Of a DNA stretch of 64,000 bases, positions 15,034 through 52,792 are shown piece by piece (within the stretch, counting starts at the first letter, position 1; every line of letters starts with the position of its first letter). Origin of the DNA: a virus; the IMG/VR virus record IMGVR_UViG_3300045988_050969; one strand, written 5' to 3'. A program made the position numbers and the translations under genes. The notes under the pieces are model-generated. The model worked only from the letters and a program-made list of their open reading frames with translations. It was not told the DNA's origin and searched no databases.

Positions 15034-16009
15034 TATTCCATATTATGAAGATAATACAAGAATATCAAATTCTGCTATTGGTTGGTTTCTAAAAAAAGGC
15101 CCTAAGTACTTACGAGATATGCTAGATGGTAAGGAAAAAGGACTAGAATTACCTCAATTAGAAAGAGGTACTATGATACATGAATATATACTTCAACCAG
15201 AAGAATTCTGGAAAGACTATGAAATATTAGATTTTGAAATACCTAAAGTAAAACAACAGAAAGATTTATGTGAGAGATATTCTCAACTAAAATTAACTGA
15301 TCCTTTAGAAAATGAAGTATCTATTCTACTAAGATCTTATAGATCTGCTTATAGTAATAATAAGGGAGCAGCTCAGCAAATAACTGAGGCTAGAGGTATC
15401 GTAGATAAATATAATAGTTATATTAAATATCTGCAAATAGGAAGTACAAAGAAAGTAATATCATTTGCAGATTTACATATGTTAGAAACTATAAAGAAAA
15501 ATATTGAGGATCATATTGCAGCTAATAGATTGCTGTACGATGTTCCTACTACATATACCTGTTATAATGAATTTCATATTAATTGGGAACTTTATGGAAT
15601 AAAGTGTAAATCTTTATTGGATAGAGTAATGTTTGACCATGTTAATAAGAAAATCATTCTGATAGACTTAAAGACAACGAGTGATGTCTATAATTTTGCT
15701 CATTCTGTAGAAACGTTTGATTACTACAGACAGATAGCTTTTTACCTTTGTGCTATTACTTGGTATATGATAGAAGAGCTAAATCTAAATCCTGACGATT
15801 ATGATTTAGAAGCCTATATTATTGCAGTACAAACAAATGGTAATAATGAAGTTAGAGTATTTAATATGTTTAACGAAGAGGAGTTACTCAATCGAAAAAA
15901 TATTATTGCAAAAACATTAACAGAAATATCATATCATATCAATTCCGGTAATTGGGAACATACTCGTAAATATTACGAAAATGATGGAATTGAAGAACTT
16001 AGAACCTAA
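15020..16009 (+). CDS. PD-(D/E)xK nuclease, RecB/Cas4-like exonuclease family (329 aa)
   Basis: D...LIDLKT core followed by YYRQIAFY (QxxxY), typical of the PDDEXK_1 exonuclease fold. Confidence 0.6.
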   Translation: MMKIDIPYYEDNTRISNSAIGWFLKKGPKYLRDMLDGKEKGLELPQLERGTMIHEYILQPEEFWKDYEILDFEIPKVKQQKDLCERYSQLKLTDPLENEVSILLRSYRSAYSNNKGAAQQITEARGIVDKYNSYIKYLQIGSTKKVISFADLHMLETIKKNIEDHIAANRLLYDVPTTYTCYNEFHINWELYGIKCKSLLDRVMFDHVNKKIILIDLKTTSDVYNFAHSVETFDYYRQIAFYLCAITWYMIEELNLNPDDYDLEAYIIAVQTNGNNEVRVFNMFNEEELLNRKNIIAKTLTEISYHINSGNWEHTRKYYENDGIEELRT

Positions 16010-16089
16010 GACATTAAATGATTTTTTAATTGCAATAGCTATGGATTCATGTGAAGAAGTATTTGAAGTAGATGAAAACATAGTTTGCA

Positions 16090-16467
16090 ATGAAGAAGTT
16101 GAACTTTGATAAATACAACAAAGGGTTGCGTTATTATGCAACCCTATTTAAAATAAATCCAATAGTATTTACTTCAGATTTATTTATAGATATTACTATA
16201 GATAAAGAGTTTTTAATACTTCAATATAAAACATATCCTAAGTATTATATAGTAAAAAGAATCCAAGAAAATGAGTTTTTCTACAATGATATAATAAAGG
16301 ATAATATAGTTTGCTATAGATTTAAGTTAAAAACTAATGACCAAAAAGCTGATTTTAGCGTAATGCAAACTAATGGTACACAATTTTGTACTAAAGAGTT
16401 TATATTAAGTATGGCAATACTTTGGAAAGATTATTTAGATAGTTCATTTTATGATACTATATTTTAA
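16090..16467 (+). CDS. hypothetical protein (125 aa), last gene of the plus-strand module
   Basis: Intact ORF, TAA stop, followed by the bidirectional terminator. Confidence 0.5.
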   Translation: MKKLNFDKYNKGLRYYATLFKINPIVFTSDLFIDITIDKEFLILQYKTYPKYYIVKRIQENEFFYNDIIKDNIVCYRFKLKTNDQKADFSVMQTNGTQFCTKEFILSMAILWKDYLDSSFYDTIF

Positions 16468-16478
16468 GAATTACTCTA

Positions 16479-16522
16479 CACAAAAAAGGCAGGCTTTGTG
16501 AAAAGCTTGCCTTTAATTTTTT
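16479..16522. terminator. bidirectional intrinsic terminator between the convergent modules
   Basis: 12-bp stem, 16485-16496 with 16503-16514 (one G-T pair), loop TGTGAA. Flanked by A6 upstream and T6 downstream, so both strands read hairpin plus U-run. Confidence 0.75.
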
Positions 16523-19500: not shown

Positions 19501-21434
19501 TTCTCAGGTAATTGAAGAGTTTGATGGTCTACACCAAATTCTTTCTATAACTATTCTTTAAACTATTTTAAATCTTTATAAAATCTACCGTAGTTTAGAT
19601 CTCTAATTATATAACCAGTAGTATTGCCATTCTCGTCTACTTCAAATAATAACTTCTAATTTCTATTTCCTGCTACCTTTAATAGTTTATTTAGTTCGTT
19701 AGCTTTTTGGAATACCACTTCATTTATACTATTCTCAGTATCCTACAATATATTAAATAAACTTTTAATAGCTTCATCATTAATTCTATCTCCAGAACCT
19801 AACACTCTAGTAATATAGCTAATATCAAAATCTGTTTTTCTAGTATTTTCAGATATATAGTTATATATAGTAGGGCTATTTACTTTCATGCCTTCCTTCA
19901 ACATAATTCTCTAGGCATTAACTACTTGCATACGCTTAACTGCATCATAACTCTAATCTAATATACTCTTACATAATTGTAGTTCTGTCATTAACTTATT
20001 ATAATTTGCTTCTCCTACAATTTGTTTATAAGTATTCATGTTTACTAAAGAATTATATATATCTTTAGCCTGTTCACAGTAAAAAGCAAAATAGTTCTTA
20101 TTTAATGCTACGAGTTCTTCATCTGTTAAAGCATCAGCCTGACCTTTATAAGCTTCTACTACTCTATTACCTACATCTCTTACATCTAACTTTAAATCTG
20201 TAATAAAAGAAGCAATAACATCAAAATCATTTATAGCATTATTCTATAAATTAGCTATCTGATATTTTATATTCTCTATTACTTCTGTTCTTTTAGATAT
20301 ATCAGAGATGTCTATACTACGTAATCTAGATTGTAAACCAGAGAGTAAGTTCTATCTTATATCAGATAACCTCTTATCTAACTCTTCTTTAGTATCAAAG
20401 TCATATTTTTCTGCTTCATGTATATTTGTTTCAAGCTGCTTAACTTTATTGTTTAATAACTTCTCAAATCTAACATTAGCAGATCCATTATTATCTTCTA
20501 GGTTAAAAGATAACAATTCCATTAGTATGTCTCTAGTATTCTCTGTATTTCTTACATGTTCTTTTCCGGTAAGTAAATCAACAATTGCAGACCATACTTC
20601 TCTTATCTTACTTATAGCTTCTTTAAATAATCCTCTCTATCTGGCATCATCTACTATATTATTTACAAATTCTTCATTAGTAAGAAATTCAGCTATAAAT
20701 TCAAATTCATCTTTTAAACCGTATAATCCACCAGTCTATTTGCCTTTTTCATCATGTATACTCTAATATAAAGATCTATTAAATTCTAGTAAGTCTTTTA
20801 CTTTATTATATACTTTTATTTCTAAATCAGTACCTATACCGCTTTTAACATTTTCAAAAGATCTTGAAGTAAATGCATGAACCATTTCATGTACAATACT
20901 CTTTGCATTGTACTCCATATTTGTTTCTTCAAATATCTCTTTATTAATCCATATAGTGTGAGTATTATCACTATACCACATGTAATCCCCATTAGCTAAT
21001 TGATCTTTTTCTTCTGTTATACCAATATATACATCAGTATCAGAGAATAAATCAAGTATCTAGTATGCTATAGAATCTTTTGGTATATACTATTTTAATC
21101 GTTCAACTACTTGTCCTGATGTGGTACTCATATGAGGAGAACCATCTGACCAAGTACCAGTAACACTACCTATACTTGAAAAGAAGTCAGAAGGTCGTTC
21201 CTAAGACGGTATAAACGTTTTAGCCATCTGTCTAATAGCTTGATCACGATCTCCATCAAAACGTTTTAAAAGGTCTGAAAACAGCTCAGACTAAGACCCA
21301 TCTGGGCCCTAGTCTATAGCATAACCATTGTTTTCAGATATGATATAATAAGCAGCATCTTCACTGCCTAACACTTTAGCAACTTCATCAACAGCTGCTT
21401 TTACTTCTTTGTTATTTAAATTTAAACACTGCAT
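16521..21434 (-). CDS. large virion-associated protein with N-terminal zincin metalloprotease motif (1637 codons, TAG read as sense)
   Basis: One frame is open from ATG 21434 to TAA 16521 if TAG is sense. ORF-track fragments 16668, 18177, 18534, 19116 and 20763 share the phase and all end in TAG. HEMVH lies at 20877-20891. Confidence 0.65.
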
Positions 21435-21436
21435 AA

Positions 21437-24400
21437 TTATTCACATTCTTTTTTACGTTTCTTACCCATTTCAACAAGATAAGTCATATCTACCACATCT
21501 TCAGTAACATCCATATTGAAAGCTTCATTTGCAATAGAGGAAGTATCTACATTTGCAAAAGGATCTTCTGTTTCTTGTGAGAATTGTTCTTGCATATTTG
21601 AGAATATATCTAACTATTCGTTTATGATGTCCATAGATTCAGATCCGTCAAATGGATTATCTAGACTAAGATTAACGAAATCTGATACATCTGTTTCATC
21701 ATATACTACATTATCTTCAGATAACGGGTCTATATTAAAGGTAGTATCTACTACTTGCGTATCAGATACATCACCTTCCATTTGCTTCTATGTTCCGTTT
21801 ATTTTTACCTAAATATTATCTGAACTAAGAGGTATAAACTGTTTAGTAAATTTACTTCCGTCCTTTAATTTAGGTAATTTAACTCTAGACATTGCAGTTT
21901 CTGCTATAACGCTATCATCAGTTAATACATTTTCATCAAATGCATTCTGATCAAAAGCTGATATATCCAAACCGCCTTTTGCAAACTCGTTAACTCTAAA
22001 TCCATTTTCTTTAATACCTAATTTAGGTATTCTCTTATAGATTAGTTTAGCCCCTCTCTTACTCTTCTTACCTTCATCACTTACATAAGCTATTTCACCA
22101 ATTAATTGATATAACTAAATTGATGTATTATATCCAGAACCGTTATTTACAGTTATGAATTCTGCTCTTCTAGTTCTATAATGAGGAACAGCGAAGCTGT
22201 CATACATAGTAATAGATTTACCTCCAATACTACTTCTAGATTTAGATAATATAATATCATAATCACTACTCTTAGAACGGTCTTCCTATTGTTGTTGGAA
22301 AGGATCGTTACTATTAGGCTTAAGATTGATATTATATTTAGGAACTATATTAGGATCATCCCACATATTTCTAGCTATAGTCAATCTAATAGAAGGGAAA
22401 CTCATAGATTGAGGATCATCACCAGTTTGAGCTATAGAACTATATCCAGATACATCTCCTCCATTTTTAAATTGGTCTAATACTTCTTTAATATTAGATA
22501 CATAACCATTATCTATCTTGTATTGAATAGGAACTAAATGGAAGAATGCATTTACTCCTCTTTCATCATAAGAAGTATAGTATGCATATTTAACCAGATC
22601 TTCTGCAAATTCTCTAACTACATCATCAGTATCTTCAAGTAATTGAGCGAAAGCAGATATTAACTGATTCTCTCTATCATAGTCATTATTCATTGAAGAC
22701 TCAGATAGAATAATTCTGTCTACATTCTAACCTTCTAAGCCATCTGCTGGATATTCCTATAAGTAATTTAATAATTCATTCTTTATAGTTCCATCTTGAT
22801 TAATAAGATGTGGGAAAGCATCTTTGTTAAGTAACAGATATCTTTTGAGTTTGGTTAATCTAGAACACATAGTATTCTTACCTACAAACATTCCTCTAAA
22901 TTGATCATCTGCCATTTTAAGGAAGTCAGTATTAGAAGTAGCTCTAGCTCTAATTATACTGTCAATCATTCTATTTATATTCTGAACAAACTTCTTATCG
23001 CCTTGATGTTTATAGGATATTAAATCATTACCATCTGTGCCTTTAATGATATCTCCTCCTACAATATTACCCATTACTGAATTAAATATATTCTAGTAAG
23101 TCCAAGTTGCGGGGAACGTTTGACTCTTAAGAATCTTTCTAGCTATAGTAGTAGCATTATATAACTTCTTACTTAAGAACGTATTACTAAAGTAGTATTT
23201 CAAAGCATCATCTACTTCCTTACCTTTTATTTCAAATACTCCAGAATTATCATATATAAACGTCTGATATGAATTTACAAAGTTTAACTGCAATGCTAGA
23301 TTGTTACCAAACTTCTTAGTATCAATCTGAGATCTATGTACTAATTCACTAAGTGTTTTAGCATCCATGCTTAATTCTTTATAAGCATGCAATACAATAA
23401 TCTGTTGATATAAGAATGGTAAATTATCCTGTTTTTTATTCTTTAAAGCGTATATAAGACTAGATTCATCAAATACCTGTGTCTTATCTATTACTTCACT
23501 CTTTATTCCAGGATATGCAGAGTACCCAATTTCTTCAGCTAAACCATTATATTTAGCTTTCCAATTTTGTTTACTTTCACCTTCTGGCATAGCGTCTATA
23601 GCTTCCTTAAGTAACTTACCATATACATTGTATAATCCAGTGATTATCTAGTTTTCCTATAGATTTTCAGCTCCATATACTCCCTTACTATTGATAACTC
23701 TATTAGATAACTCTTTTAATATAGGTTGAGCTAAGAAATAGAAAGTATTCTTACCTTTACCACCTCTAAGTAATAGGTTAGTCATATTATAAGTAACCTG
23801 ATTAACATTTAAAGCAATAATATAAGGATCTTTAGCAACGTCTACGTGGGCATTAATCATAGCAGATAACCAGTCAAGGATTCTAAATCCATCTTGACCT
23901 TTAATAGCATCTAAGTCTCCTAACTAATACACATTACTATGACTATATATCATATTAAGATGCATCAACTATGTTAATACATGGTTAGTAGAGTTAAGAG
24001 CAAAAGGAGCAATACCAGCTTTACCACTAGTATACTCTTCTTTTCTAGATTCCTAGAACGAAGGCAATAATTCATAGAAAGGATCTGCTTCTTGTTTACT
24101 AGAACTTGATATTAACGGTAGTACATCATCTTGTAGCATACCAGTAAGAGTATCAATAGATGCTCTAGTCTCAGCCATATTCTTAGTATCTGATACTACT
24201 AATTGATAATTCTGTATTATCATATTCTGCAACGCTTCAGGACTTTGCTCGCTTACTTTATCATTAGTATATTGAACTATATTTCCATCTGTATCGTAAT
24301 TCAGCATAGCAATATATAGTTTATCAACGTCAAAGTCAGAACCCGTCATGGCTGTAAATTCATCCGGAACTACGATAGTATCACTGAATCTATCAGGAAG

Positions 24401-27400
24401 TACATCTACTACTTTAAATGAGAAAGTAGAAGACAAACCCTGAGTAGGGATACGATAACCAATACCTTGTGGAGTAGAATTAGTACCAATTACATTATGG
24501 TCGGTTAACCATTTTTTCATAGCTCCGTAAGAAGTTTGATACTCTTTTGGTACTATATGTCTAAAAAAGTTAGTACTCAAGATAACATCCATACTTCCAT
24601 CTTTATTCAAGAATCTAAGTTTATTACCGCCATTAAACGCACCATTTAACTATGATTCTTTCATTCTAGCATCAGTTGCTTTTAAACCAAATGAAGACAT
24701 CTGAATAGCAGAACCACCAGGAGTATTAATATCTACTACTTCTTTATTTATAAATGATATAATTCTACTTTCAATCCATTGTCTACTACTCTGAGCTGCT
24801 AACGGAACAAGTATATTGCCATCCTAATCAAGAGTAAGACCTTTAACAAACTCATCAGACATACCAGAACTAACAGCCTAACTAACTAAGTAGTCTGATA
24901 AAGCCTTATTATTCAGTTTACCTTTATGGAAGAATCTCTTAATTATTCTCTTATAACCTATATCGGATAACTGATTAATGGCATCCATTGTCTGAGTCTT
25001 AATCTATTGACCAGTTTTAGTAGCAGCTTTATTAGTACCGTACACTCGATCGTCTATAAGATTACCTAAACATATTTTAACAGCCTAGGTACCAAACGAA
25101 CGGTCAATATGCTCATGTGGATCTGTATTCAACTGTAAACGTAAATTACGAATATCTTGAACAAATACAGGCAAATCTCCTTCTTTCTTAGTAAGATTGA
25201 AGGATTTTTTATTTAAACCGTCAACATTAAAGTGTTCGTTTTTAGGACCTTCATAAGCTTCAAATTTAGTTCTACCACCAACTTTAACAGCAGATTCAAA
25301 AGTAACCATGTCAATTACTCCTAATTTATCATTATTCATACGATTATATAAGACTCTATTATCAGCCTTAGCTATTACTTTGAATAATGGGAACATAGCC
25401 ATCTTATCAAATACAGGAACATTCAGATTTATATCACTTTCCCTATGGTCTCCAAAGTATACCATCTTTAACGGTTTAACTACGAGAGCTAAAGTTTTCT
25501 GATATAACTCTGGTTTATTCATCCATGACTCATCTTCTCCTTCCATTATTTGATAAGCTTCTTCGATAGCATCACTCCATTGTCCTAATGCTTTCATAAT
25601 ACGTCTATACATAGCAGGGCGAATATATACAGCAGCATCAGATTGATTGATATTACCACCTACGATATTTCCTTTATCATCTCTTCTGAAGTCATACGGT
25701 CTAGCACTAGCATTAGTATAGCTATCTACAAACTCTTTCTAATTCTGCGTAAGAGAATTATAGAAAGCATCTTCCTTCTATTTAGTAGATAAAGCCTATA
25801 TAACCTCATTGTCACTTAAATTAGGATGAGCTTCGCTGTATAAATCACGTAGAATAGAGTTTCTGAATATACTTTTTAATTCGTCATAATAATCAGAACC
25901 AAGCATATTGTCAGCAAGATGCATTACTGTTACTTTAGTATCATTCTCAGCTGGATTATCCCAGATAGTTCTAAGATTAGTACCAGTAGATAATACAGAT
26001 GATAAACGTTTAATTTTATCCACATCCTTACCGGTTATTATATCATAGGTTTCATTAAAGTGCCCTTTTCTATTAATTTTATATGTTTTCTTTTTCTTAC
26101 GTTTCCATTTATAATAAGCAGGATCTCCTGTAAAACATTTCTCTACTTCCATGATAGAAATAGCCTAATTAGCTACATGAGAACCAATTACAGAGAATAA
26201 TATATCTTGATTCTTAAGACCAGATTCTTCAGATGTATACATTGAATTATTTAGTTCTGATTTATAGTAATCAAATATGTTACTAGGTATTAACTTATTA
26301 ACATATTCACCATTTGAATATCCAAGTATACCTCTTTTTACAAGAGCTCGCATTTCTCTTTGAGTAGCGTGCAGTAACAAATGATTTATTGCAGAGAATA
26401 TAGGAGCAGAAGGTTCAATAACTTCTTTAGAATTAGGTTTAGATGTACCTAACAGTAATACTTTTAAATCTGATAAATACTTCTGAACCTCTTCTGTAGT
26501 ACCATATTGTTCCAATCTAGCTAATTCTTGATTGACATTTAGAACATCTTCACCAAGTCTTAATCTAGTAAAGTATCTGAATCTACCTCCATTACCAGTA
26601 TGATCCATCTTACCATTTTTAATCTTACCGTGGTAATTGTCTACTCTTAATGTAGGATGCTGTGCAATATAATCTTTCTTCTAGAAGTAATCCCATACTG
26701 CATTAAATTCATCTAACCAATAATTAGCAAATATATTAAGAGTACCTTGACTAAATCTTCTTTCTCCTACATAAGTAGAATTTTCAGCTGTTAAATCTTC
26801 TCCAATAATAGCTGCATAATTAGCATCTCCTTCATCAATATATTTACTAGTAAGAACATCTTTTACCATTTTGATACCTGATATACTATACCAAGTCTTT
26901 TTATCAGACATAGTAGGTAATATCATTCTATCATTAAAAGTAAGAGTAAGCTTAGCAATATAATCTTCAACAGGAGTAATACCAAAATAATCTCTACTAG
27001 ATTCATCTATATTCAGTGCTAAGAAAGTGTGCAATTTGAATTTAGTATTCTTAGCATTAGCTATCAAACTATGTGCAGAGAATGGAGTACTTAATATCTG
27101 TTGTTTCTTACCATTAGCATCTTGATTAATGTTACGCACTTGGTCTGTCATATAGTTATTTTCACTGATAGGATAAATCAGCGCACCATCTGCTCCAACA
27201 ACACTAAACTCTTGAGGAGAAGGATGAACCTTACCGTAAGATATTGCCATTACAGCTATCTAACTATTAGAATTTCTACCAAATGTAAACATTCTATCCA
27301 AAGTTCTAGAGTATCCACCACCTGATGTAGATTTTACACCTATGTCTTTAGTTTCAGCTAGTTTAATCAAAGTAGCCAAAGTACCTTCATTAAATCTCTC

Positions 27401-30400
27401 TGTTTTACCAGCTCCAGTGCCTTTCCAGAAATTATATAGCTTATCAAATTCAGTAGCTCCAACATAGAAATTATTAAGCATATAATCTAATGCTAAGTTA
27501 TCCATAGGAATAGACAAAGCATTAAATACATCCAATAAAGTATCCTTTATTTCCTATATCTTAGTATCATCTACCGGTTTACCTTTCTTTATTCTGTCAC
27601 TTACTATTTTAAAAGTAGAACTTAATTTACCTCTTCTATCTTTTAAGAACTTAGCAAACTCTGGTTTAATAAAAGGTCTACCACTATCTGTTCTGTCTAT
27701 AGCATCAGATGCAAAGAACATACCTGACCATCTAGCAGGAAGTCTACCTACTTTACGTAAGTTATCACTATCTTCTACAACCCAATTAAATTTACTTAAG
27801 CTAGATTGTATTTCACTAGCTATTTCATCTTCAGACTTACCTCTTGTATTTATTTTAGGATGCTTAGTAGTAATAGTGTCTAACTGTACTTTAGAACTCT
27901 TTATAGTTATCTCTAACTAAGTTTTAGTATTGTCAGATATAGGTGCTTCTTCCGAAGTAAGAATATCATATAAAGATTTAAAGAAAGGAATAGTATTACC
28001 TAAATTAGCACTTCTATCTATTATATCCTGATACTTATCTATATCCCATAAGTTCTCCATAATCTGATTCCATACAAAATTGAAATCTTCAGTTACAGGA
28101 AGTTGGAACATATCATCATGTACAGGAAATAATTCTTTAGTAATAACGCCGGTTTCTTCATCTTCAACAAATTGGTATTCATACTTAGGTATAGAGTAGA
28201 AGAACAGTTTAGCTCTAAAGCTAACGTTATCTTTCTTACTTACTTCACCTTGATTCTTATCCCAATTGTTTTCAGATTGTTCACCAGTCTCTACTTTTAA
28301 TCTAGACTCTTCCTCATTATCTACTTTTTCTACTTCTCTAATTCCTAATTGTTCTATCTTCTTACGAACATATCTAGTAAATATATCTTTGTTATTTACT
28401 ATATCCTGAGCAATATCTACATATTCGTCAGATATCCAACCAAAGTCTATATTCTACTGTAATCTGTCAAATAACAAAGAAGTATTAAGATTATGAACAT
28501 CCTCTATGGTTCTAATATTAAATATAGATAACGCTCCACTAGTAAGAGAATTAACAGCATGATAGAATACATCTGGATCAGTTATATGAGGTAATTTAGC
28601 TTCTTCTTCCTTTGATAAACCAGGTATATAATAAGATAAACCTTCTGGTTTACGGCTATAGAAATCTTCTAATGCTTGCTTAGAGGCTTTATAATCCTTA
28701 AACTAACCGTCATTTATACTCTTGAAAAAAGCTCTGATTATATTTCTGTGAGAATTCCAGAAGTACAAGGTATTATATATCTTCTTAAAGATTCTAATGA
28801 CATTATATAATAAACCTTTACCGTTTTGATCCTTAGCGTAATTACGGAATTCTTCAGCAAGCGCTTCCTCTGCTTCATCTTGAGTAAGATTTCTAGCACT
28901 TCTTTTAGATTTAGAATATTCTTGATATAACTTAGTTCTCTATTGTTCACTCAATAGCATTTGAGTTACATAGTGGAATGCTTCGTGATATTCTACACCT
29001 GCACCAGATTGTCTAGATAAAGATATACGAGGTATTAATTCGTTAGAAAGTGCATCCATTACTACACTGAACAAACCGTACGCCTCTTCATTAGCTCCAA
29101 ACTTAATCATTTGGTCTGTTACTAATATCTGATCGCTATCTATACCTAACTTATCAAATAACCATTTCTTAGCAGAATCTTCATTAAACTTACCTCTACC
29201 TTTAATAGTTGATTTAAGACCACCTAAGAACTTAATTGGAGTAAGAGTAACTTCTCTTTTACCAGTCTTAGGATTGAGAACAATACCCCATTTAAGGTAT
29301 TGACTTTCTTTCATTCCATTATCTGGTATACTTAATCCATATTTCTCAAGATTCTCAGGAGTAGCTCTTTCTGCAATTACAACTTTCTTACCACTAGCTG
29401 TCTTAGCTTGAGAAGGTTTGCTTACATCTTCTATTACTTTATCTTGAGTATTAACAGTAGGTTTAGGTTTGTCTTGTTGTTTCTATAATTCTTCTCTATT
29501 TATTGTAGCATCATCTGCATATATAAATGGAGCATAAAATGCATGTTCACCTAAATCTGTCTTTAATATTCCATTATTAATAGCCCATGTAATTACTAGA
29601 GGAGAATCAGACACCTTTACAGCCTTACCGTCTTTAAAAGTATAACCTATTTCTTTTAAAGAAAATGTTAAGTCTTTAGAGAATATAGGTATTCTACTGT
29701 TTTCGTCTTTTACTAGATTAGGAGAACTATTAGCTATAGACACTAGTAAGTCTATAAATTCTTGAGGGAATTCAGACATTAATACATCCTTATCAGTATT
29801 CCAGTGTATATTCTATGAAATCTAGAATACTATTCTTCTCTTTTCAAAATCTGTTAAAGTAGCTAAGTTAGTAAATTGTGTACTGAATCTCTTTTCGGTT
29901 CTAGGACCTTCTTGAGTATATACAGTAGCATCTTCACTATAGTATCCATTAACAAAGAATCTATTACCTTTATCATCAGTATATATACCTAATTGCTTTC
30001 TTACTAAGAAATTATACTTAACTCTTTCTACTCCTTCTAAACCATTAGTAAATGTATTAGAGCCACTATTAGCTAATAATGACAATAAGAAAGAATCAAT
30101 TACCTTAGCATTAGAACCTCTTACTGATGTCTGACCAGTAATAATATTAAATATTAACTCAGCAGTAGAAGGAGTAATGGGCTTTCCTTGCTCATCTACA
30201 TTTTGAGTGCCGTCCGCATTGAAGGCTAATTTAACCTGCTCTGGATTGTTTACTCCAGATATTCTATGCAATTCCTCAGATAACATAATAGGCAATGTAG
30301 CAGTACCAGAAGGAGTATTCTCAGGTTTAGGTATAAAGTATATTTTACCAGCATAACCTATACCTTGTGTTTCAGTCTTATCTCTAGTAAACATATCATC

Positions 30401-33400
30401 TATAGAGAAAGGATCAACACCAAATGGACCCGTACCATATCCAAACTGGATATCTCCACTAGTTATTTGTTCAGACATAGCAATAGCATCTTCTGTTATA
30501 CCAAAATCACTTACTTCAGTTAGCTTTCTAAACTTTGGTAATCCTGCCTCATCTAATTGATTATCAAGCTGACCGTTACTTATTCTTATTCCTACAGGTT
30601 TAACATGCTTCCTAGCAGTTAATGGTAATGTTTTAGTAGTAGAATATTCTGGAGCGTAAGCCTTAATTATCTTAGCTCTCAATTCTCTTAACTTCTATAT
30701 CTACTCATCTATTTCATCCTAAGTCATTTCCGTATCTCTCATACGGTCATACAGACTCTAATTGATTGCTCTAACAGATGCATTATACAGTTTACCATCC
30801 TTCTCTATCATCACGTGAATAGCTAAATTATCTATAGCACTATCAAATGACATGTCATGTTTAAAGGATGTAACTACAAAGTATATATCATCAGCTGTTG
30901 ATAACCATCCCGGAATAGCTAAATTATCAGCTAATTCTCTACCTGGTCTTCTATCAACTTTACCACCATCTTTACCTACAAACTTTACAGATTTACCAGC
31001 TACAGTAATAGGCATAACTTCATCTGTATTAGGCTGGAAGAAGAAAGTATTAGCTATATGTAATCTTCTGAATTTCTTTCTAGCAGCTACCCAACCATTA
31101 GTAGACCTATTATAATATGAAGAAGGACCCTACAATCTGGAATCAAAATCGTATGATTCTTCAAATGCAGATTGTTCTAATATATCTTGGTCATTTACAG
31201 GTATTCCGTTTTCAGGATTACCATCAGGCATGTATACTAGCTAATCGTTCTAAGCATCATAAAAAATTTCATCAGATTTTGGAGTGTCCTCTATTTCTGT
31301 AACATTTACTGGATTCTCTACTTGAGGAGCAATATCTGAAGCTGCAGGAGTATCCTCTACTTCTGTTACTGTAGGCTATTCTGCAGATCCTTCTTCCTTG
31401 TCCTGTAGTGATTCCTCAGCAGGAGAAAATTGAGCATCGTCTACTTCCTCCTGTTGCCCCTAAGATTCTTCAGTAGTAGAATCATCTGTTTGCTATTCTT
31501 CTACCTCTTCAGCAATATCTGTAGGTTCTACTGATGTAACTTCTTCAGCTGGATTCTGCATCTATACTTCATCTTCTATATCTTGATTAGTATTAGTAAC
31601 GTCATCCATTTCTACATCAGCTTCTACTTCATCTACACTTACTCTATCTTGTAGAGGAGAACCTTCTATAGCTTCCTCTAACATGTTTAGTTGATCTTCT
31701 AGACTACTTATTTCCTATTCAGCTATCTATACATCTGGTATAGTAACCTCTTCTACTTCATCCATAGGAGCAACCTCTGGAGCTTTTGTTTCAGTATTGG
31801 GAGTTCCTTGTTCTATATTTGTTAAATTACCAGTATCTTCAGCTATCTCCTCTCTACTTACTTGCTCTTGATCTTTTTTACGCTGTAAATCTTTCTGGAT
31901 AACAGACATAGCTCTTTTACGCTGTACTAAATCCTGGTCGGCAAGTTTATCGTCTTTGCTCCATTCTTCATTTACAGAGTTATCATAATCCTATATAATC
32001 TAATCAGAAGTTCTAGTCTTACCGTTTATCTTGTCTGCCTACATCTCATTAGTAAGTATTTGCTTCTGCTGTTCTTCGGTAAGATTATTATAAGTAGGTT
32101 TATACAATCTAGTATCACCTACATATTTTCCAGTAGTATATGCTAAAGCATGAGCGAATAAATCAGCTCTTGCCCCATCATTAACATACTTGCTTATGGT
32201 AGCTACAGATAATTGATCTGCAAAAGGAACAGATAATCCAAGATCCATTACCTGTTCTCCTACTTCTTCTCCTAAGAATCGCTGTATAACTGGTTTACGT
32301 TCTTCTATTTGAGATTCTACATACTTTATAATACCAGATATACCATCTACATTTACATCTAAATTCTTATCCTCTTTTAGTCTTTGTAAATCCTGTTTTC
32401 TTGAATTAAGTTCATCTCTAAGAGTAAGTAAGTCATTGTAATCTTGAACAGCAACCATTCTGCCCATGAATTCATTAGCATACTCTTCTTCAGACAGTAC
32501 ATTTCTTTCACCCAGTAATTGGTCTACGTATTCGGATAATTCCTTTTTACTTCTAGAAGTAATATCAGATGCAGGTAAATCATTAACTATCTGTCTTCTT
32601 CTATCACTACGTTTTTTATCATAGCGAGCTAAATAATCAGAATAATGTTGCTTTATTTCTTCTTTTAAATCAGCATCTTCTCTTATTTTCTGAATAACAC
32701 TTTCTATTTCTCTAGTAGAAGCTTCAGATGCTTCACTAGCATCTTTTAATCTATCTTGAATATATACAGCATTTTTTACTACAGATATAAAGTCATCATT
32801 ATTTATTCCTAGTTCATCAGTTATACTACGTAAAGACTTATTATTAGATAATCTTTCTATGTTATTTACTAATCTTATGTCTTCATCAATCATTTCATTA
32901 GTAACACCTTCAGGTTTAAATTTATCCTTAAGAGTTTCTAAATTATTGATTATTCTAGAATAACCTTTTCTTCCATCAGAACTAGCAGCATTCATGAACT
33001 GCTCTACCTTATTCTGCTTTTCAGCATTACCATATCCGTCAGCAATATAACCTCTCAGATTACTATCTGTAAGGTATTGAGCAGTAGCACTATATACATC
33101 CGGTGAACTAAATACTCCAGACATAAATAATCCAGTAAATCCACCTATATCCATAGATTTACGTAAATCAGCATCACCATTTAGATTCTCATCAGGATGA
33201 ATACCATAGTATGCCATATGAGCTTCTCCTGCTAATTTTAATGCATTAGCAGCTCCCTACAATAGACTATAATCTCCAGCATTATCATACTTACCAGTTC
33301 TATAGTAATTACTTACTACTCCCTGTTGGCCTTCTTCTGTCTTTTCCATGAAGTAAGAAACGCCTAATTTCTTACCAATGTTAGTGAGATTACTTATAGC

Positions 33401-35242
33401 ATTGTATGCTCTAGTTTTACCTCCAGGAGTTTTCCATGCTTTATCTACAGCTCTAGCAATAGTACGATCTATAATACCATCAGCTGCTGCATATAAATCA
33501 TCTTTACGTAATCTATCAATTACAGTAGTTTCTAGTCCAGAGGATATATTACGATTACCTACAGCTCTTTTAGCAGCTTTCTATAATCCAAAGTAGTTCT
33601 TCATATATGAACCACCAAACATAAACATACCTTGAGCTAAGTCAGATAACATTAAAGCTTGATTAGTCTATCTAACTACATCTAGACCTTTTTGAGAATC
33701 ATTTACTAGCTAATTAAAATTAGCGTCGGGAGTGATTATATTCTGTGATAAAGCGTTTTCTAATACTTCATAATCTGTCATTTCAGAAGTATCAAATCCT
33801 CTGGCTTTTAGCTACTCATCGGCAGATTGTATTACACTGGGAAGATTAATTCTCATCTAATCTGCGCCTTCTAATACTCTCTACTTAAATGAATCAAATA
33901 CTTCAGCTTGAGTTTCTGAATTACGAGTGTAATTAGTAATAGCAGCTTGAGTAGCTAATTCTGCAGCACCAATTAATAAAGGAGCAGTACCACCAGAACC
34001 TGCAGCCATAACTGCTTTAGATGCCCATTTGGCAGCCATGCTAGTACCAAATTGTCCTAACATAGCTCCAAATTCAGAATAACTAGTACCTAACTCTGGT
34101 AATGCATAAATCCAAGATTCTGGATTAAATGCAGATATTTGATTATTCTCTTGTTTTTCTCTAAACTCAGCAGATATTTTACTTGGGTCATACAACCAAT
34201 TACCGTGCTTTAAAGTATGTATCATACTTTGTATCTACTGATTTTTATCAGCTAAACGAGAACTTACAACCTTTTCAGCATTATTAAGCTATTCAATCTG
34301 TTTTGCTAAATTGCTGCCTTGGTTTTTACTACTCCACATATATTCTATTTGATCTGGAGATAATTGATGAGTTCTCCCAAAGATTGCATCGTTTATACCG
34401 TCATTAGCTAATAAGTGCTTAAAGTTATTACCAGGATTAAGATCACCAATATAATCTTCTGCTAGCCAGTCAAAACTATAGTATTTCCATAAGTCTGTTA
34501 CAGAACCAAATTTATCAGTACTGAATAATTTACCAGGTCTAGTCTCATAGAATATATCCTGTAAATACGGATTAGTTCTAGCTAGCTCTTTTAAACCAGG
34601 TTGATGATATATGATGTTACCGTTCTAATCTAATTGGTTTACACCATTTTCTATATTCTTAATATTATCTTCTAGTTCAATTATTCTATTCTGAGCTGAT
34701 TGAATTTGCGTAGGTGTCCAATCTGTTGCAGAATCAATCTATCTTTGTAAATCAATTAATTCTTGTTTACTTGTAAGATAATCTTTAGCTAGATTAATAG
34801 AATTTAAATAGTTAGCTTCACCCTCTCTAACTTCATTCTATAATCTACTTAATTTAGATTGATCCTTCTTTTCCATAAAACTACGATATACATCTAAAGC
34901 TTTTATGTCTCCAGACTTCTCAGCTTCATCGTACATATAGTCTAGGACAGTGATATTCTTATCCTTATCATCTGCGTCTTCACTAGACTGAAGTAATTCA
35001 GGCATACTTCTAGATGTCCACCAATTAGATATTCTACTTTTACTATCTTTTGTAGAATCTTCATTAGTAGTTTTATTATCGTAGTTTATATCGTTCTCTC
35101 TATCTTCTAATCTTCTTTGGTAATAATCTGATCTAGAATCGTATGAATACCCATAATCACCTTGTAAGGTATAATTAGGGTATTCACTAGCGATATTATT
35201 ATCTGTATTTTTACCTAGAGTATAGTTCTATTGTCTACTCAT
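21437..35242 (-). CDS. giant virion protein (4601 codons, TAG as sense) containing a crAss-type two-barrel RNA polymerase DxDxD motif
   Basis: 18 ORF-track fragments (22286 through 33881) share one phase and each ends in TAG. Start is ATG 35242, stop is TAA 21437. DFDVD lies at 24323-24337, and an acidic low-complexity linker at about 31260-31730. Internal gene boundaries cannot be excluded. Confidence 0.6.
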
Positions 35243-35251
35243 AATATTATA

Positions 35252-47708: not shown

Positions 47709-48350
47709 TTATTGTTTAGGTAACTCGATTACACGAGTATCAGTTACCTTGATTATTGGGTTACTGTTAACTATCTGATATTTTTTGGTACGTATACGTT
47801 TCCAATCAAAGTGCCAGAACCTAACCCAGCCATTCTTATACTTATTACGATATTCTTTCTTTTCTTCTACAAACAGAATCTGTTGATTCTTAATATCTAA
47901 TGTGGCTTTAAGGATTGAGTCCTTCCTACTAACTATGATAGTTGTTAATGGATTAATTTTAAGTTCTTCGTCAAAATCTATTAACTTGTGTTTTATAATA
48001 GTTCTGACTGAATCTTTAATCTCAGTATTGATTACATTTATATTAGTTAGGTTCTTGTCTTTGATTTTGAGCTTTTTCTAAGCATCCTTGGTTTCTTTTA
48101 ATAAACTATCATTACTAGTATTTAGTTCTTCTATAGTAAGCTATAACACTCTGTTTAACTATTCTTTCTAGGATGCTAATTGCTCGTAAGCTCTAACATT
48201 GTTAGTTATTCTGTCAATCTCTTTATTCTTCTTTTGTAGCTAATGGTTCTAAACAAAAACAGTCGCAATAAGTAAACTAACTAAACCTACTGCGACTGCT
48301 CTGAAATTCCTTGTAAACCAATTAACTAACTAATTCAGTATTGGAATCAT
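47709..48350 (-). CDS. membrane-anchored coiled-coil protein, i-spanin-like (213 aa, about 8 in-frame TAG)
   Basis: ATG 48350 overlaps the holin-like gene's 3' end by 29 nt. N-terminal TM AVAVGLVSLLIATVFV is followed by K/E/L-rich coiled coil. TAA stop at 47709. Confidence 0.4.
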
Positions 48351-48831
48351 CTGGTAATTCTTTATCTAATGATATATCTAAATATTTCTCTCCTTTTGCT
48401 TTTATAACCTTTTTGAGGATTTTCCATATTTTCCATTTAGGATATAAGTCGCTAAATGATTCTAGTAACGACCAAAACTCAACTAAGGCTATCATTCCTG
48501 CTACTATTTCTACAGCGTGCAAGTTAATAGAGGTTACTACCAGCTAATCTATTATTGATGCACTAGTTATTGCTACTGCTGCATCTCTAGTCTTCCATAT
48601 AGTTTTCCATGCTTTATGTGATTCAATCTTAGGATGCCCATATTTTTTAGAGACTTTATAACCATAGATAGCATCAAGTAGTATCAATATACCGACAGCA
48701 GTGATAGGAACCCATACAGGTGCGAATATAGAAAGTAGCCCAGTTATAACAGAAGCTACGCATTTATTCGCACTACTGAACATGTTCTTAAATATTGACA
48801 TAGTATGTTCTCCTAATTGTTGGTAATTCAT
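48322..48831 (-). CDS. holin-like three-TM membrane protein (169 aa, 1 in-frame TAG)
   Basis: Fragments 48544..48831 and 48322..48522 are joined in phase by TAG 48544. Hydrophobic segments VASVITGLLSIFAPVWVPITAVGILILL and AVEIVAGMIALVEFWSLLES. Charged C-terminus. Confidence 0.5.
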
Positions 48832-48844: not shown

Positions 48845-48901
48845 TAATAAAAATCAAATAAGCCCTGACAGATTAAAAGGGGAGTAAAATCTGAGAGGGC
48901 T
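48845..48901 (-). terminator. hairpin plus U-rich tail downstream of the RT gene
   Basis: AGCCCT/AGGGCT (48861-66 / 48896-901) and CAGATT/AATCTG (48869-74 / 48888-93) with a 2x2 internal loop. The minus strand then reads TATTTGATTTTTATTAT. Confidence 0.5.
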
Positions 48902-48945
48902 CGAAATTCCGTTTGAGATTATAATTATATAACGATAAGGTTTAT

Positions 48946-49968
48946 TTAAGGTTTCCGTTTTGAAAATCTTCTTGCATAAACTAATAGCTCTTTATAGCGT
49001 AATATTTTCTTTAGTAAGTTGATGCCATTACAATGTTTAAGCCAACCTATATGACTACACATTTCTTGTTTGTAATCTTCTACTGTAATGTTTTTCTTTC
49101 TGCCTAATCTAGCAGCTTTCCTACACATGCTACGCTTAATATTTTTTCTTACTAAAGTATAGTCATGCCTTATTACATAACCTACAAAAGATATACCTCT
49201 GTCTTCTACTTTAAATATCTAATAGTTATCTTTGAAAGTTAATTTTAAAGTATCTAAATACTATTTCATTTCTTCAAACAGTTCTCGTAAATACTCTTTA
49301 TCCTTATGTAGTATTACTATATCATCTGCATATCTGAAGTAATATTTAACCTATTTATCTTCTTTAAGCCAGTGGTCAAAGTAAGTAAGATACAGATTAG
49401 CAAAGAACTAAGATAAGTAATTACCAATAGGTACACCTTCTGCTGAATCTATTATCTCATCTAATAGCTATAATAACTTCTAATCCTTTATCTTCTTTCT
49501 TATTATGCTCTTTAATACTTCATGGTCTATACTAGGATAGAACTTTCTGATATCTAACTTAAGACAATAAGTAGTATTATCTACATCTTTTAAAGCTTCT
49601 TTAACATTATGTAATGCTTCGTGAATACCTCTGTGTTTAATGCAACTATAAGTATCTTTAATAAAGATAGATACCCATATAGGTTCCATTATATTCATTA
49701 CAGCATGATGTACTATTCTATCTGGATAATAAGGTAATCTAAATATTAATCTTTCTTTAGGTTCTCTAATTATAAATGTATTATATTCAGAAGTTTTATA
49801 CGTACCGTTAATTAAATTCTGCTATAGTTTTTTAAGTAATTCTTCTTTATTCTAGTCAAACTCTTTGATATCTTTTCTACTAGATTTATTTCTTCTAGCT
49901 TTCTTATCTGCTAAATATAAATTGTCTAAGCTAACAATCTTATCGAATAAATTATTATATCTCTTCAT
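48946..49968 (-). CDS. DGR-type reverse transcriptase (340 aa, 8 in-frame TAG)
   Basis: RT motifs DIRKFYPSIDH, IGNYLS(TAG)FFANLYL and YADD (49321-49332). In-frame TAGs start at 49852, 49822, 49480, 49468, 49408, 49351, 49261 and 49219. TAA stop at 48946. Confidence 0.85.
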
Positions 49969-50105
49969 AAATAATATTTTCTGAAATACCTTCACGCATC
50001 TTCACTTTCGTTACCAATGCGTTCAAGAAGCATGTCATATTTTACCAAGAGGTAAGGTTCAGCCCTTGATTTTTTGTCAGTTTATAATTTTTTTTACGTA
50101 TTTCA

Positions 50106-50201
50106 GTGTCCTGACATTAGCATTGGAATTGTCTAACTCATTGTTAGAATTCAAATTGAACAAACCTGCATTAGACTCATTGTCTGAGTTACTGCTGATT
50201 T
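50106..50201 (-). repeat. DGR template repeat (TR)
   Basis: 96 nt aligning without gaps to 50344-50439 (offset 238). It carries 35 adenines on the minus strand and 10 AAY codons in the VR reading frame. Confidence 0.85.
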
Positions 50202-50230
50202 ACTCACGACTGCAACCTTTTATTGGTTAA

Positions 50231-52792
50231 TTAAAACCAGTTTTCTTCAGATTCTATAGAATCCAATTGTTCATAATCCTCATCATTTAACTCTAATGTA
50301 GCTGGAGCAGCTGGCAATGCCGGTTCACCATAGAAGGTAATTCGAGTCCCGACACCAGCATCGGAATGGCCCAACCCAGAGTTAGAATCCAAAGAGAACA
50401 AACCCGCAGTAGACCCATTGCCCGAGCAACCGCCGATCAGAAGCGTCCTAGGTGTAGCTGTAGCACTAGTCCAGTGATAATCACAATAATAAGTTGTAGC
50501 ACTAGCTCCATTTCCTACTACAGTTGGGAATAGATCTGCCTAATTATTATTAACGAGTTTTTTTACATATTGACCAGTAATTGTACTTTCTTTAAAGTCT
50601 TGTAATTCATAACCTGCTGCAATTAATTGCTCTGCAGTAGGATTAGTTCCTCCTTCAAATGTACCAAACTTAGTATAATCTTTGCAGATGTATACACTAT
50701 TATCAGTACCAGCAACTACTACATCAATTACATTCTTCCACACATGACCAAATGGATTCTCAATACCACGGTATCTAGGAACATTAACTACCTTAGTACC
50801 AGTAGACGTACCCTCTGCATTAGTATTAGTATGTGTATATTCGATTATACCAGTACCATTACCTAATGAATTAGTAGTACCGCAAGGTACAAATGAATAA
50901 GTAGTAGCTCCATTTACAGTTACAGTTCCTGAAGTTACTCCATCACCCAAACCACCTTGATGATAACCTTCTGCAGTTAAATTAGCATTAAATGCTTTCT
51001 GACTATTCAATGTAGCATATTCTACTACGAATAACCAAGTAAGGTCTCTGTGAGCATCATAAGTATAAATATTCCAGTTGTTAGTTCTATTGTTATTTCT
51101 AGCCATAGTCTGGAATTCTGTTCTAGTTTTGCTTATTATAGGAGCAGTATTACGAACTTGAGTTCTTAATGAATTATTATGACTTGAACTATCTAGATTT
51201 ACACTTCCCTCGTATGCACCGATATATTTCTTCTCTACTTTAGTGTAACCAGGAAGATTGTATTCACTCATACGGATTTCAACTGTATTATCTGGAGTAG
51301 CTATAAGTAATCTATAATGTTCTGGAATTTCTACAAAAGCTTCTACACCAACCCCACTACTATCTTGAGATGAGGTAGTACCGTCTTCCCACTTAGTCCA
51401 GTCGTTTGCTTTTAAGTATTTCTTAGTATTATCCGTATTGCTGATAGTACACCCTCTCATCTTACTCTGGATAGGAAGTGTTTTATGCATTTCCATATTA
51501 CCAGTACGTACACCATCAGGACTAGAGCTATTAGCTAAGTCAAACTTAACTCCATACCACAGTTCATTTTCATTTCTACTAAGCTTACCAATCTCTTCAT
51601 CAAGAGTAACAGCTGCACTTATAGCACTAGGACTATCAGCTAAGTAATTAGTACTTGATAAGTCAGGCATTTCATTAGCTTCAGTTAAACCTACCTTATC
51701 ATTTACTTTAAGTATAGTACTTCTAAGCTCTGTAATATCTTGATTTAAAGCTGTCTCTAAACTGTCAATATTGCCTTGAAGTTCTGTATCCTTAGCTTTG
51801 AGTTCTTTCACTGCATTCTCTCTTGCAACCTTTTCATCATTAATTGCATCAGGAAGAGTTTCATTAATGGCTAACTTTTCAGCACCAGTCATTAAACCAG
51901 CAACAGTATTAGTAGCAGGAGTAATAGTAATATTAGATAAAGTAGACTGTACATATTTACCGCCGCTCTTTTCTACTCCAGTAAGACTGATAGTAATGTT
52001 ATTAACATCTGTCTGATCTAACTGGAATGTACTTAATAAATTATCTGGCATAGAGTTAACTACATTCTCCATAGCTTTACCCTTACCGCCATCATAAGCA
52101 GTACCAGTAATATCGCCAATGATAATGGCATTAGAATCAATGTGTACCCATTGTGAACCAGACCATCTAAATTGATAGCTTACTTCACCAGGAGTTACAT
52201 TAACATATATTTTATCTCTTTCACCTACTATAGGAGTTTCGTGTTCAGCATCTGCATATAACTGTATATTCTAAAGTACTCCAGTAGGAGATACAGTATA
52301 AGTAGCATATGCATCCATCACATCATCAACATATGAAGGCAATTGACTAGCAGGTACTTTACCATTACCATCAAGTTCAGCAAGACCATTAGGTTGACCT
52401 TTTAATGCTTTGAAGTCCTGTAAGTCTTCATTCACATCATCAATCTTAGTATCCAGTCTATCTACTTGAGCTTTTACAGCAGCATCACCTTTATTAATAG
52501 CATCTACTATACTAGTACCTTTAAAGTAGTTATTACTACTATTATCAGGTAAAGATATAATATCACTATTCTTATCATAGTTTAAACCAACAGATTGTAC
52601 AATCTCTTTAATATGAGTCCATTGGTCTACATTAGCATCTCTGTTTAACGGTATCCACTTCTTAAGATCAGGACTATATGACTTAATAACATTACCAGTA
52701 CTATCTGTTGCTAAGTCAATCCAGTAAGAAACCTCTTTAGGATTTGGAGCATACTTAGATGCTATGAAATTAGGATTTTCTTGTTTAACCAT
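50231..52792 (-). CDS. tail fibre / receptor-binding protein, DGR target (853 aa, 2 in-frame TAG)
   Basis: Fragments 52271..52792 and 50540..52072 share a phase and read through TAG 50540 to TAA 50231. Fibre motif LAELDGNGKVPASQLPSYVDDV. The C-terminus ...YYCDYHW...LLIGGCSGNGSTAGLFSLDSNSGLGHSDAGVGTR contains the VR. Confidence 0.75.
50344..50439 (-). repeat. DGR variable repeat (VR) inside the tail-fibre C-terminus
   Basis: 25 mismatches to the TR, all at TR adenine positions (minus strand). There are no mismatches at the 61 non-adenine positions. Confidence 0.85.

Follow-up and report, generated by a model that had tools for sequence, protein, structure and literature searches.

A very probably complete, Avd-less diversity-generating retroelement at the tail-fibre gene of a Suoliviridae gut phage that reads TAG as glutamine

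The 64,000-nt viral sequence IMGVR_UViG_3300045988_050969 from IMG/VR, referred to here at its full length as the window, carries on its minus strand a diversity-generating retroelement (DGR) composed of a tail-fibre target gene, a non-coding template repeat (TR) and a reverse transcriptase (RT) gene, with a variable repeat (VR) near the 3′ end of the target gene. With high confidence, the region is a complete DGR in the order target gene–TR–RT, lacking the accessory protein Avd, in a Suoliviridae gut phage whose late genes read TAG as glutamine. An earlier note on this DNA, made from the letters alone, had proposed a complete DGR that diversifies the tip of a tail fibre, and every test run in the present analysis supports that proposal; the element shows each testable DGR feature except Avd, which is optional. 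The differences between the TR and the VR are restricted to adenines of the TR, the TR is invariant and the VR hypervariable among related genomes, and polymorphisms of the TR are copied into the VR. Furthermore, the DGR-type RT is intact, TAG is recoded as glutamine, and the RNA that separates the TR from the RT gene possesses a conserved, covarying structure.

The TR and the VR were compared without gaps at an offset of 238, the coding strand being the minus strand. The two repeats differ at 25 of 96 positions, and every difference falls on an adenine of the TR (a T on the plus strand). On the coding strand, the substitutions from TR to VR comprise 16 A-to-G, five A-to-T and four A-to-C changes; ten TR adenines are unchanged in the VR, and the non-adenine positions are identical throughout (61/61). 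The probability that all 25 mismatches would fall by chance on the 35 adenines among the 96 sites is 2.4e-15. Once every A in the TR was replaced by N, the resulting pattern matched the TR and the VR alone in the 64 kb window (0 matches expected, 100 shuffles); this search found no second VR there, and the window therefore contains a single TR and a single VR. Translated in the frame of the fibre gene, the TR reads ISSNSDNESNAGLFNLNSNNELDNSNANVRT with 10 AAY codons, and none of its codons can be turned into TAA, TGA or TAG by substituting an adenine. In the target protein, the VR peptide (LLIGGCSGNGSTAGLFSLDSNSGLGHSDAGVGTR) is directly preceded by YYCDYHW, and the end of the VR lies 36.7 codons from the stop codon of the target gene. 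The TR follows that stop after a gap of 29 nt, within a target–RT gap of 262 nt. The earlier note had described the same 96-nt alignment with 25 adenine-only mismatches, 10 unchanged adenines and 61 identical other positions, as well as a stop-avoiding TR with 10 AAY codons. All of this was reproduced on re-alignment, the mismatches remaining confined to TR adenines, and its figures for the VR peptide, the YYCDYHW context, the 853 codons of the target, the approximately 36 codons after the VR and the gap before the TR (30 nt) were right to within one base.

The same repeat pair is present in related genomes, where its behaviour points to an active element. An exact-match scan of IMG/VR with the core of the TR yielded 45 contigs, 41 of which provided a usable TR/VR pair. 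The TR is identical at 96/96 positions in the phages cr53_1 and cr115_1, and identical or different by 1–3 nt in the 45 IMG/VR contigs. The VRs of the window, cr53_1 and cr115_1 show 15–17 pairwise differences, each at a TR adenine, and 40 distinct VRs occur among the 41 pairs; non-adenine mismatches between TR and VR number 0–2 per genome in the 40 further genomes. The mean column entropy reaches 1.22 bits at the 35 TR-adenine sites, compared with 0.04 bits at the 61 other sites of the repeat and about 0.1 bits in the 150 nt upstream of the VR and in the VR–TR gap. In addition, the TR polymorphism T83G is mirrored in the cognate VR in 16/16 cases, C82G in 1/1, C77T in 1/2 and C89T in 1/1, with one further pair carrying the same change as the last. 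The presence of such non-adenine TR polymorphisms in the linked VR is the signature of one-way copying from TR to VR. Together, VRs that are hypervariable at adenine sites and mirrored TR polymorphisms show that the element is active in this phage lineage. The adenine-site-specific population variation that the earlier note had proposed to look for is thus seen across 41 related public genomes, which are separate assemblies rather than reads from one sample. The AAY codons by themselves allow a theoretical protein diversity of 5.8e11, which would rise to as much as 1.9e16 with free variation of every adenine-containing codon.

Two other explanations bear on this variation. The cassette might be a relic in this genome, its adenine-specific differences recording past retrohoming. 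A single assembled sequence cannot prove current activity, and the RT of one relative, cr60_1, has Asn in the place of a catalytic Asp; a relic, however, should gather random differences, whereas none of the 61 non-adenine positions differs. Furthermore, the RT open reading frame (ORF) of the window is intact with all catalytic and DGR-specific residues kept, the TR is identical to the TRs of relatives whose VRs all differ, and the structure of the spacer RNA has been preserved by compensatory changes even within the lineage, all of which makes a relic improbable. Alternatively, the diversity of the VR could stem mainly from recombination of existing VR alleles among co-circulating phages rather than from frequent retrohoming. 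The crAss-like phages do recombine, and cr115_1 and cr53_1 are placed in different subfamilies yet share a cassette that is 93–97% identical, which suggests module exchange. Nevertheless, the reshuffling of alleles cannot create an adenine-only spectrum, the VRs are unique in 40/41 cases with independent combinations of adenine sites and essentially no non-adenine changes, and TR polymorphisms are mirrored in the linked VR; recombination as the main source is accordingly more improbable still than a relic.

The RT is of 340 residues and its ORF is intact, with 8 in-frame TAG codons read as Gln. It matches the Pfam family RVT_1 (E 2e-19) and PHROG 1423. Among solved structures, the closest is the Bordetella DGR RT (bRT, 8ub7), with E 6.8e-45 over the full length and 35% identity, while the structures of group II intron, retron and defence RTs reach only E 3.8e-17 or weaker, a difference of 28 orders of magnitude. 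An alignment with five other DGR RTs shows that R73, I181, G182, S186, Q187 and Y213-A-D-D216 are conserved. Work on the Bordetella enzyme implicates R74, I181, G182, Q187 and the catalytic aspartates in contacting template and dNTP and in mutating adenines, and these are conserved as well. In NCBIfam, the group II, retron and defence (DRT) RT models all score far below their curated cut-offs with the window RT, and no DGR-specific RT match was returned. The RT lacks a maturase or endonuclease extension, intron RNA domains are absent, and Rfam finds RT-17 only. The chance that the RT is instead of the group II intron, retron or defence type and the repeat pair an unrelated duplication is negligible: RefSeq does call the orthologous RT ‘Intron reverse transcriptase’ and the top NCBIfam match by E-value is a group II intron RT/maturase, but that match scores 131.9 bits against a cut-off of 300, with no DGR-specific match for comparison, and the adenine-specific repeat differences, the ranking among PDB structures and the conserved DGR residues, including the GxxxSQ motif, refute it. 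The RT thus groups with the Bordetella DGR enzyme and is of the DGR type, the RefSeq label on its orthologues being, on this sequence comparison, a misnomer. The RT of cr60_1 (L049:4001-5026) reads LKLNVRKF where all others have LKLDIRKF, with Asn for the first catalytic Asp; this copy is possibly inactive or affected by a sequencing error, and the TR and VR of cr60_1 still show 17 adenine-only differences.

Both the YADD motif and the recoded stop codons that the earlier note ascribed to the RT were confirmed. Two of the TAG codons in the RT gene stand at invariant glutamines, Q187 in the diagnostic SQ motif and Q250, and therefore provide direct support for TAG as Gln. Once TAG is taken as a sense codon, the longest ORF of the window grows from 674 to 4605 codons and the minus strand is nearly closed into contiguous genes. 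In-frame TAG is common in the structural and late genes of the minus strand (16521-64000) and nearly absent from the plus-strand block (1-16467). On the minus strand, one ORF of 4605 codons contains 61 in-frame TAGs (21437-35251) and is followed by one of 1640 codons with 37 (16521-21440). The tRNAs of the window are tRNA-Leu(TAA) and tRNA-Arg(TCT), at 1977-2063 and 3705-3779. No TAG-suppressor tRNA is encoded in the window, and the suppressor therefore resides in the approximately 36 kb outside it or comes from the host. Such cassettes escape standard-code gene callers and DGR finders, since 8 TAG codons interrupt the RT and the diagnostic SQ motif includes one of these.

Table 1. Features of the retroelement, with positions in the window
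Feature	Position	Strand	Description or basis
DGR reverse transcriptase (RT), 340 aa	48946..49968	minus	Motifs IGNYLSQ and YADD; TAA stop 48946-48948
TR–RT spacer, 137 nt, structured 3′ part of the DGR RNA	49969..50105	minus	Rfam, covariation, fold
Second stem with inner GAAA hairpin	49995-50021	minus	In spacer
Hairpin 1 and A-run	50038-50055	minus	In spacer
Bracketing duplex, 3′ strand	50056-50065	minus	GGGCUGAACC; in spacer
Possible priming-duplex strand	50075-50080	minus	CUGACA; in spacer
Template repeat (TR), non-coding	50106..50201	minus	35 adenines; 10 AAY codons in the VR frame
Bracketing duplex, 5′ strand	50208..50217	minus	GGTTGCAGTC, given as GGTTGCAGUC in the duplex model; 6 nt upstream of TR
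DGR target gene, 853-codon tail (fibre) protein	50231..52792	minus	ORF under TAG = Gln
IMH-like VR 3′ end	50334..50354	minus	TGTCGGGACTCGAATTACC...; homologous to the TR 3′ end, not diversified
Variable repeat (VR)	50344..50439	minus	Encodes LLIGGCSGNGSTAGLFSLDSNSGLGHSDAGVGTR; 25/96 mismatches to TR

Not the whole of the repeat is rewritten. The part of the VR that varies between genomes spans approximately 50355-50438, corresponding to TR positions of about 2–85. Repeat positions 1 and 95 are fixed differences, with T in 40/40 and 39/40 related VRs, respectively, and the TR adenines A90, A93 and A95 face fixed bases in 39–40 of 40 VRs. As the ends are fixed, the transferred tract is therefore about TR 2–85 rather than the full 96 nt. 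The 3′ end of the VR differs from that of the TR by G for A90, T for A95 and a 1-nt indel, all fixed, which is the pattern expected of an initiation of mutagenic homing (IMH) site paired with its TR counterpart (IMH*). By analogy with Bordetella, the last 11 nt or more of the repeat (at least 11) would behave like such an IMH/IMH* pair. A DNA hairpin or cruciform often follows an IMH; here a GC-rich block is absent, and the sole inverted repeat 3′ of the VR is a 7-nt palindrome located 80 nt away.

The spacer that runs from the TR to the RT gene forms a conserved RNA. When the window spacer was first set beside those of LMMB (Intestiviridae) and of five further phages of the Suoliviridae, a conserved hairpin followed by an A-run emerged, plus a second conserved block. 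After 80 further loci had been recruited through their RTs, a 30-sequence alignment gave a consensus of three helices: hairpin 1 plus an outer stem and an inner hairpin, the last commonly carrying a GAAA cap. Compensatory changes occur in 10 of the 11 base pairs, and 98.5% of the cells are paired, compared with 79% in shuffles (0/500 as good) and 37–49% when the partners are slid. Such a change is found even within the lineage, where CGCAU/AUGCG in the window corresponds to UGCAU/AUGCA in L058. Against the Rfam family RT-17 (RF03020), the window spacer at 49977-50059 aligns over the full 95-position model with 33.7 bits (E 7e-5), and related loci reach or exceed the gathering score in 12/20 cases (40.9–57 bits). 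The window copy aligns column for column with these relatives and keeps all 11 pairs, and it is best regarded as a divergent member of the family by homology, placed below the formal cut-off. RT-17 has been published as an orphan motif near RT genes, with RT-10 alone tied to a DGR (Weinberg et al. 2017, PMC5737381). The motif and the window spacer share the same hairpin, A-run and UGGUA-hairpin-GAA core directly upstream of the RT gene. RT-17 sits between the TR and a DGR RT in every related locus examined; the orphan motif may be the DGR spacer RNA of this Avd-less lineage.

In addition, the 5′ edge of RT-17 is paired with a strand that the Rfam model does not include and that lies upstream of the TR. 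This pairing joins a GGTTG-led element immediately upstream of the TR to the 12 nt that adjoin hairpin 1 on its 5′ side, in a layout of 4 bp, a bulged G and 7–8 bp of locus-specific, covarying sequence. In the window, the 5′ strand of this duplex is situated in the 29-nt gap after the fibre stop. All 12 of 12 bracketing pairs form in 27/65 related loci, compared with 2/65 with a reversed query. The search used a rigid template, which also gives chance sites at 10/12, including some crAss loci with a different bulge geometry, and only the 12/12 class exceeds the control. The minimum free energy (MFE) fold of the 260-nt window RNA has a z-score of -2.75 and recovers the 50208-50217 / 50056-50065 duplex together with both RT-17 elements. 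The MFE fold also pairs TR positions 86–91 with CUGACA in the spacer over 6 bp, a pairing that would place the start of copying where diversification ends. This priming pairing is a hypothesis only: pairings of 4–6 bp occur in the Suoliviridae cassettes, no covariation was seen in them, and no conserved TR:spacer priming duplex was found in the distant loci. In the Bordetella DGR, a ‘cPRT Stop’ consisting of a duplex, an adjacent stem-loop and adenosines was described by cryo-EM and reported to be widespread (bioRxiv 10.1101/2023.10.23.563531); the duplex bracketing the TR, together with the RT-17 RNA, mirrors it.

A working mechanism can be proposed from these elements. The RNA would begin shortly past the stop codon of the fibre gene and include the TR as well as the 137-nt spacer, with the GGTTGCAGUC (upstream of the TR) / GGGCUGAACC (spacer) duplex bracketing the TR and, directly after it, a hairpin with its adenosine run and then the second stem-loop domain of RT-17. 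The RT encoded downstream would bind this RNA and prime on it in cis, starting to copy the TR near position 85 and working back to around position 2 with wrong bases opposite adenines, and would halt at the bracketing duplex. The cDNA would then take the place of the homologous 84-nt stretch close to the fibre gene's 3′ end while the TR stays unchanged, altering up to 10 AAY-encoded residues and a few others in the presumed receptor-binding tip, with approximately 6e11 AAY variants. The extent of the transcript, priming in cis and its exact site, termination at the duplex, homing and receptor binding by the tip are put forward on the model of the Bordetella phage system.

The target ORF consists of 853 codons plus a TAA stop (50231-50233), with two in-frame TAG codons, read as Gln at residues 174 and 751. 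It matches PHROG 5302 ‘tail protein’ (E 1e-84), and its 95%-identical homologue in cr53_1 is annotated as ‘tail protein; similar to sulfatase, major tropism determinant’. The C-type-lectin-like fold that the earlier note suggested for the variable domain could not be confirmed, and its basis is the RefSeq note and the literature on this DGR lineage, in which the architecture has been assigned to CLec3 (PMC7290462). A phmmer search of the last 298 residues against PDB sequences returned no match at E<=10, a seven-family profile gave only a chance match in the PDB, and Pfam searches of the full target and of seven family members returned nothing relevant. With hhalign, the target aligned with Mtd of Bordetella phage BPP-1 such that VR lies on VR (LLIGGCSGNGS... 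on ALFGGAWNGTS...), a non-significant result with E 0.16 and a probability of 0.4%. For AlphaFold2, a 96%-identical database homologue took the place of the window protein; a first model, with 31 close homologues, gave a predicted local distance difference test (pLDDT) score of 31.7, and a second, with 46 sequences from four families, gave 42.9, with the VR domain below 50. A Foldseek search of the second model against the PDB found no match below E 0.2. Beyond the VR, the window target carries an acidic 36-residue tail (ITFYGEPALPAAPATLELNDEDYEQLDSIESEENWF, 50234-50343, minus strand), which is missing from the homologous targets of cr60, cr52, cr56, cr6, cr55 and LMMB, whose VRs have just a few codons after them.

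Several points weigh against the interpretation as a complete and working DGR, or against parts of it. The window copy of RT-17 lies below the gathering score of 40.4 bits. The bracketing duplex in the window is shorter than in most relatives, with 9 bp and one bulge, and scores 10/12 in the rigid-template count, a level that the control also reaches. The putative priming duplex is only 4–6 bp long and shows little covariation. Simultaneously, the mirrored polymorphism C89T lies 3′ of the proposed copying start at position 85, and thus argues against a start there or needs another explanation. The fold of the variable domain is unconfirmed, given the low pLDDT of both models, the uninformative Foldseek search and the want of any Pfam or PDB link. 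Finally, the evidence for activity comes from separate assemblies, not from reads of the source sample, and concerns the lineage rather than this particular genome.

Regarding the accessory protein, the intergenic spaces at the cassette measure 29 and 137 nt and are too small for an ORF from the VR to the RT gene; none is present, which confirms the earlier claim that no Avd-like ORF is located in this interval. Searches that covered the window, with approximately 36 kb of the genome lying outside it, gave no match to Avd-type Pfam families in 10 small window ORFs, and phmmer with the Bordetella Avd against 359 six-frame window ORFs returned nothing below E 0.49. Avd is typical of DGRs rather than universal, about a quarter of them being without it (PMC7290462), and published cassettes of this architecture normally lack it (Morozova et al. 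2020, PMC7290462). In several non-crAss contigs with related RTs and RT-17 spacers, a conserved ORF of approximately 115 aa stands between the target and the TR (L083, L087, L090, L097, L103, L105, L117, L122 and L128). Its pattern is ...DDGSLxFLxI...FNCxExTQQKLIN...RKFFTNSxEIKYVL...FPRKVTMRASGTRYYFE; it belongs to no Pfam family, is unlike Avd and has no homologue in the window. This ORF is a candidate alternative accessory protein.

The substitutions at TR adenines also vary with the neighbouring base. Adenines followed by G were examined in three independent sets of loci (L004-L048, L067-L136 and L137-L181). In the TR family of the window, such adenines face G in the VR in 282/304 cases (93%), in a second TR family in 213/218 (98%), and in 61 loci with RTs 56–74% identical in 220/243 (91%). 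An exact-match scan of IMG/VR with the TR of cr52_1 returned nothing and was replaced by a scan with a shorter shared pattern. The adenines of AAY codons, by comparison, show all four bases in the VRs. Of the 12 non-AAY adenines in the window TR, eight have this AG context. The fourfold-degenerate third positions, which without exception share it, gave 74 G, 6 A and 1 C among 81. Many AG sites can be accounted for by selection for glycine codons, which cannot explain the silent ones. The bias is either a context-dependent property of this RT lineage or the result of selection at the nucleotide level, two possibilities that natural sequences sampled after selection cannot separate. It is a tentative suggestion, held with less than even confidence, that mutagenesis by this Avd-less RT lineage is programmed by sequence context instead of being uniform across adenines, such that AG adenines act approximately as cryptic guanines and AAY adenines are randomised. 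The Bordetella enzyme misincorporates at 52% on average, in the order dA > dC > dG, with ‘no obvious relationship’ to primary sequence (PMC7826257). If the suggestion were true, the context bias and the RT-17 RNA would together indicate how an RT can run a DGR on RNA alone with a shaped mutational spectrum.

A stretch of 12 kb around the cassette matches cr53_1 (Suoliviridae; Loutivirinae; Blohavirus americanus) with 94.6% identity and 92% coverage, whereas its identity with cr115_1 (Birpovirus hiberniae) is 92.8%. The gene order common to the three is tail genes, target, TR, RT, holin and lysis genes. On this comparison of 12 kb, the window derives from a Suoliviridae (delta crAss-like) phage; the crAss-like backbone named earlier was therefore correct and can be specified as delta crAss-like. 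A holin gene (Pfam Phage_holin_4_1, E 1.7e-6; 48322-48831, minus strand) lies directly 3′ of the RT gene, and the DGR thus sits where the tail-fibre block meets the lysis cassette, an arrangement shared with cr53_1. Between the two genes, 44 nt past the RT stop, a strong hairpin (GAGCCCU..CAGAUU / AAUCUG..AGGGCUU, with a 13-nt loop) with a U-rich tract occupies 48860-48902 on the minus strand, with -20 kcal/mol and a z-score of -3.3. This hairpin is terminator-like and was missed by the consensus scan because of its loop size; the promoter and terminator scans gave promoter-like sites at the chance level and called no terminator. The RefSeq record of cr115_1 (NC_055898.1) begins and ends inside the VR, and its ends overlap by approximately 55 nt, the assembly having apparently been broken or circularised at the hypervariable repeat. 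As the record is broken in the VR, the target gene is therefore split and unannotated at the record ends.

The practical value of the system lies in a clean natural data set, with dozens of public genomes that carry the same template and a different VR each. The phage group is among the most abundant in the human gut, and the data are useful for the study of host-range tuning in uncultured crAss-like phages, for the annotation of such cassettes and for asking how a DGR works without Avd. Of specialist interest are RT-17 as the possible DGR spacer RNA of an Avd-less lineage and the AG-to-GG bias, both derived from comparative data.

As a DGR, the element is already known, and it is a well-documented example rather than a discovery. 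The earlier note had singled out the combination of a crAss-like backbone, an Avd-less cassette and a recoded RT as especially notable, which was overstated, as each part has been published and the identical TR occurs in cr53_1 and cr115_1. The Avd-less TG-VR-TR-RT cassette (TG, target gene) of a crAss-like phage was published in 2020 (PMC7290462), Suoliviridae DGR cassettes are cited as previously found (PMC11054128), and amber codons inside crAss RT genes have been reported (PMC12386605). Since the same cassette is contained in RefSeq genomes and the Avd-less design has been described since 2020, the window therefore adds little in this respect. The phages cr53_1 (NC_055889.1) and cr115_1 carry the same element, with an RT protein 97.4% identical and a target also of 853 aa. 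They differ from the window in the content of the VR, at the adenine sites described above, and in scattered substitutions; in their records the RT is annotated as an intron RT, and the TR, the VR and the DGR are unannotated.

The same organisation is found in crAssphage LMMB (Intestiviridae, Carjivirus), in which TG-VR(IMH)-TR(IMH*)-RT without avd is located at the end of the structural gene block (PMC7290462). Its target is likewise a tail fibre with a C-terminal VR, its RT is 51% identical, and both the spacer hairpin CCUUACC-UCUU-GGUAAAA and the second RNA domain recur there. However, LMMB belongs to another family of the Crassvirales and has no in-frame TAG in the RT or the target gene; its target is shorter (486 aa), its spacer longer (173 nt), and its RT longer as well (431 aa, with a C-terminal extension). 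In the DGRs of Zeta and Epsilon crAss-like phages, the targets are also tail fibres and Avd is mostly absent (PMC12386605, PMC11054128). In Zeta, amber codons interrupt 7 RT genes, and the RTs contain GxxxSQ and are reported to be similar to those of Suoliviridae (PMC12386605). Both groups differ from the window phage in family and genome size; furthermore, some Zeta phages have Avd and three TR/VR pairs, and the Epsilon RTs carry GxxxSP.

Compared with BPP-1, whose DGR is the prototype and has the order mtd-avd-TR-brt, the window element shares the adenine-specific transfer from TR to VR into the C-terminus of a tail-fibre protein, which in BPP-1 is the receptor-binding protein, and a homologous RT with the same fingertip and palm residues. 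The BPP-1 spacer likewise forms a duplex with sequence upstream of the TR, after which come a short stem-loop and adenosines left unpaired, and the last part of the TR is uncopied in both. There are, however, also differences. BPP-1 requires a pentameric Avd and has an Avd-binding stem-loop right after the TR, and the window has neither; where this stem-loop would be, the first 50 nt of the window spacer are A-rich and unstructured. The BPP-1 spacer is Rfam RT-10, in contrast to RT-17 in the window, and its IMH is GC-rich. Moreover, the VR of BPP-1 abuts the stop codon, whereas in the window 36 codons follow the VR.

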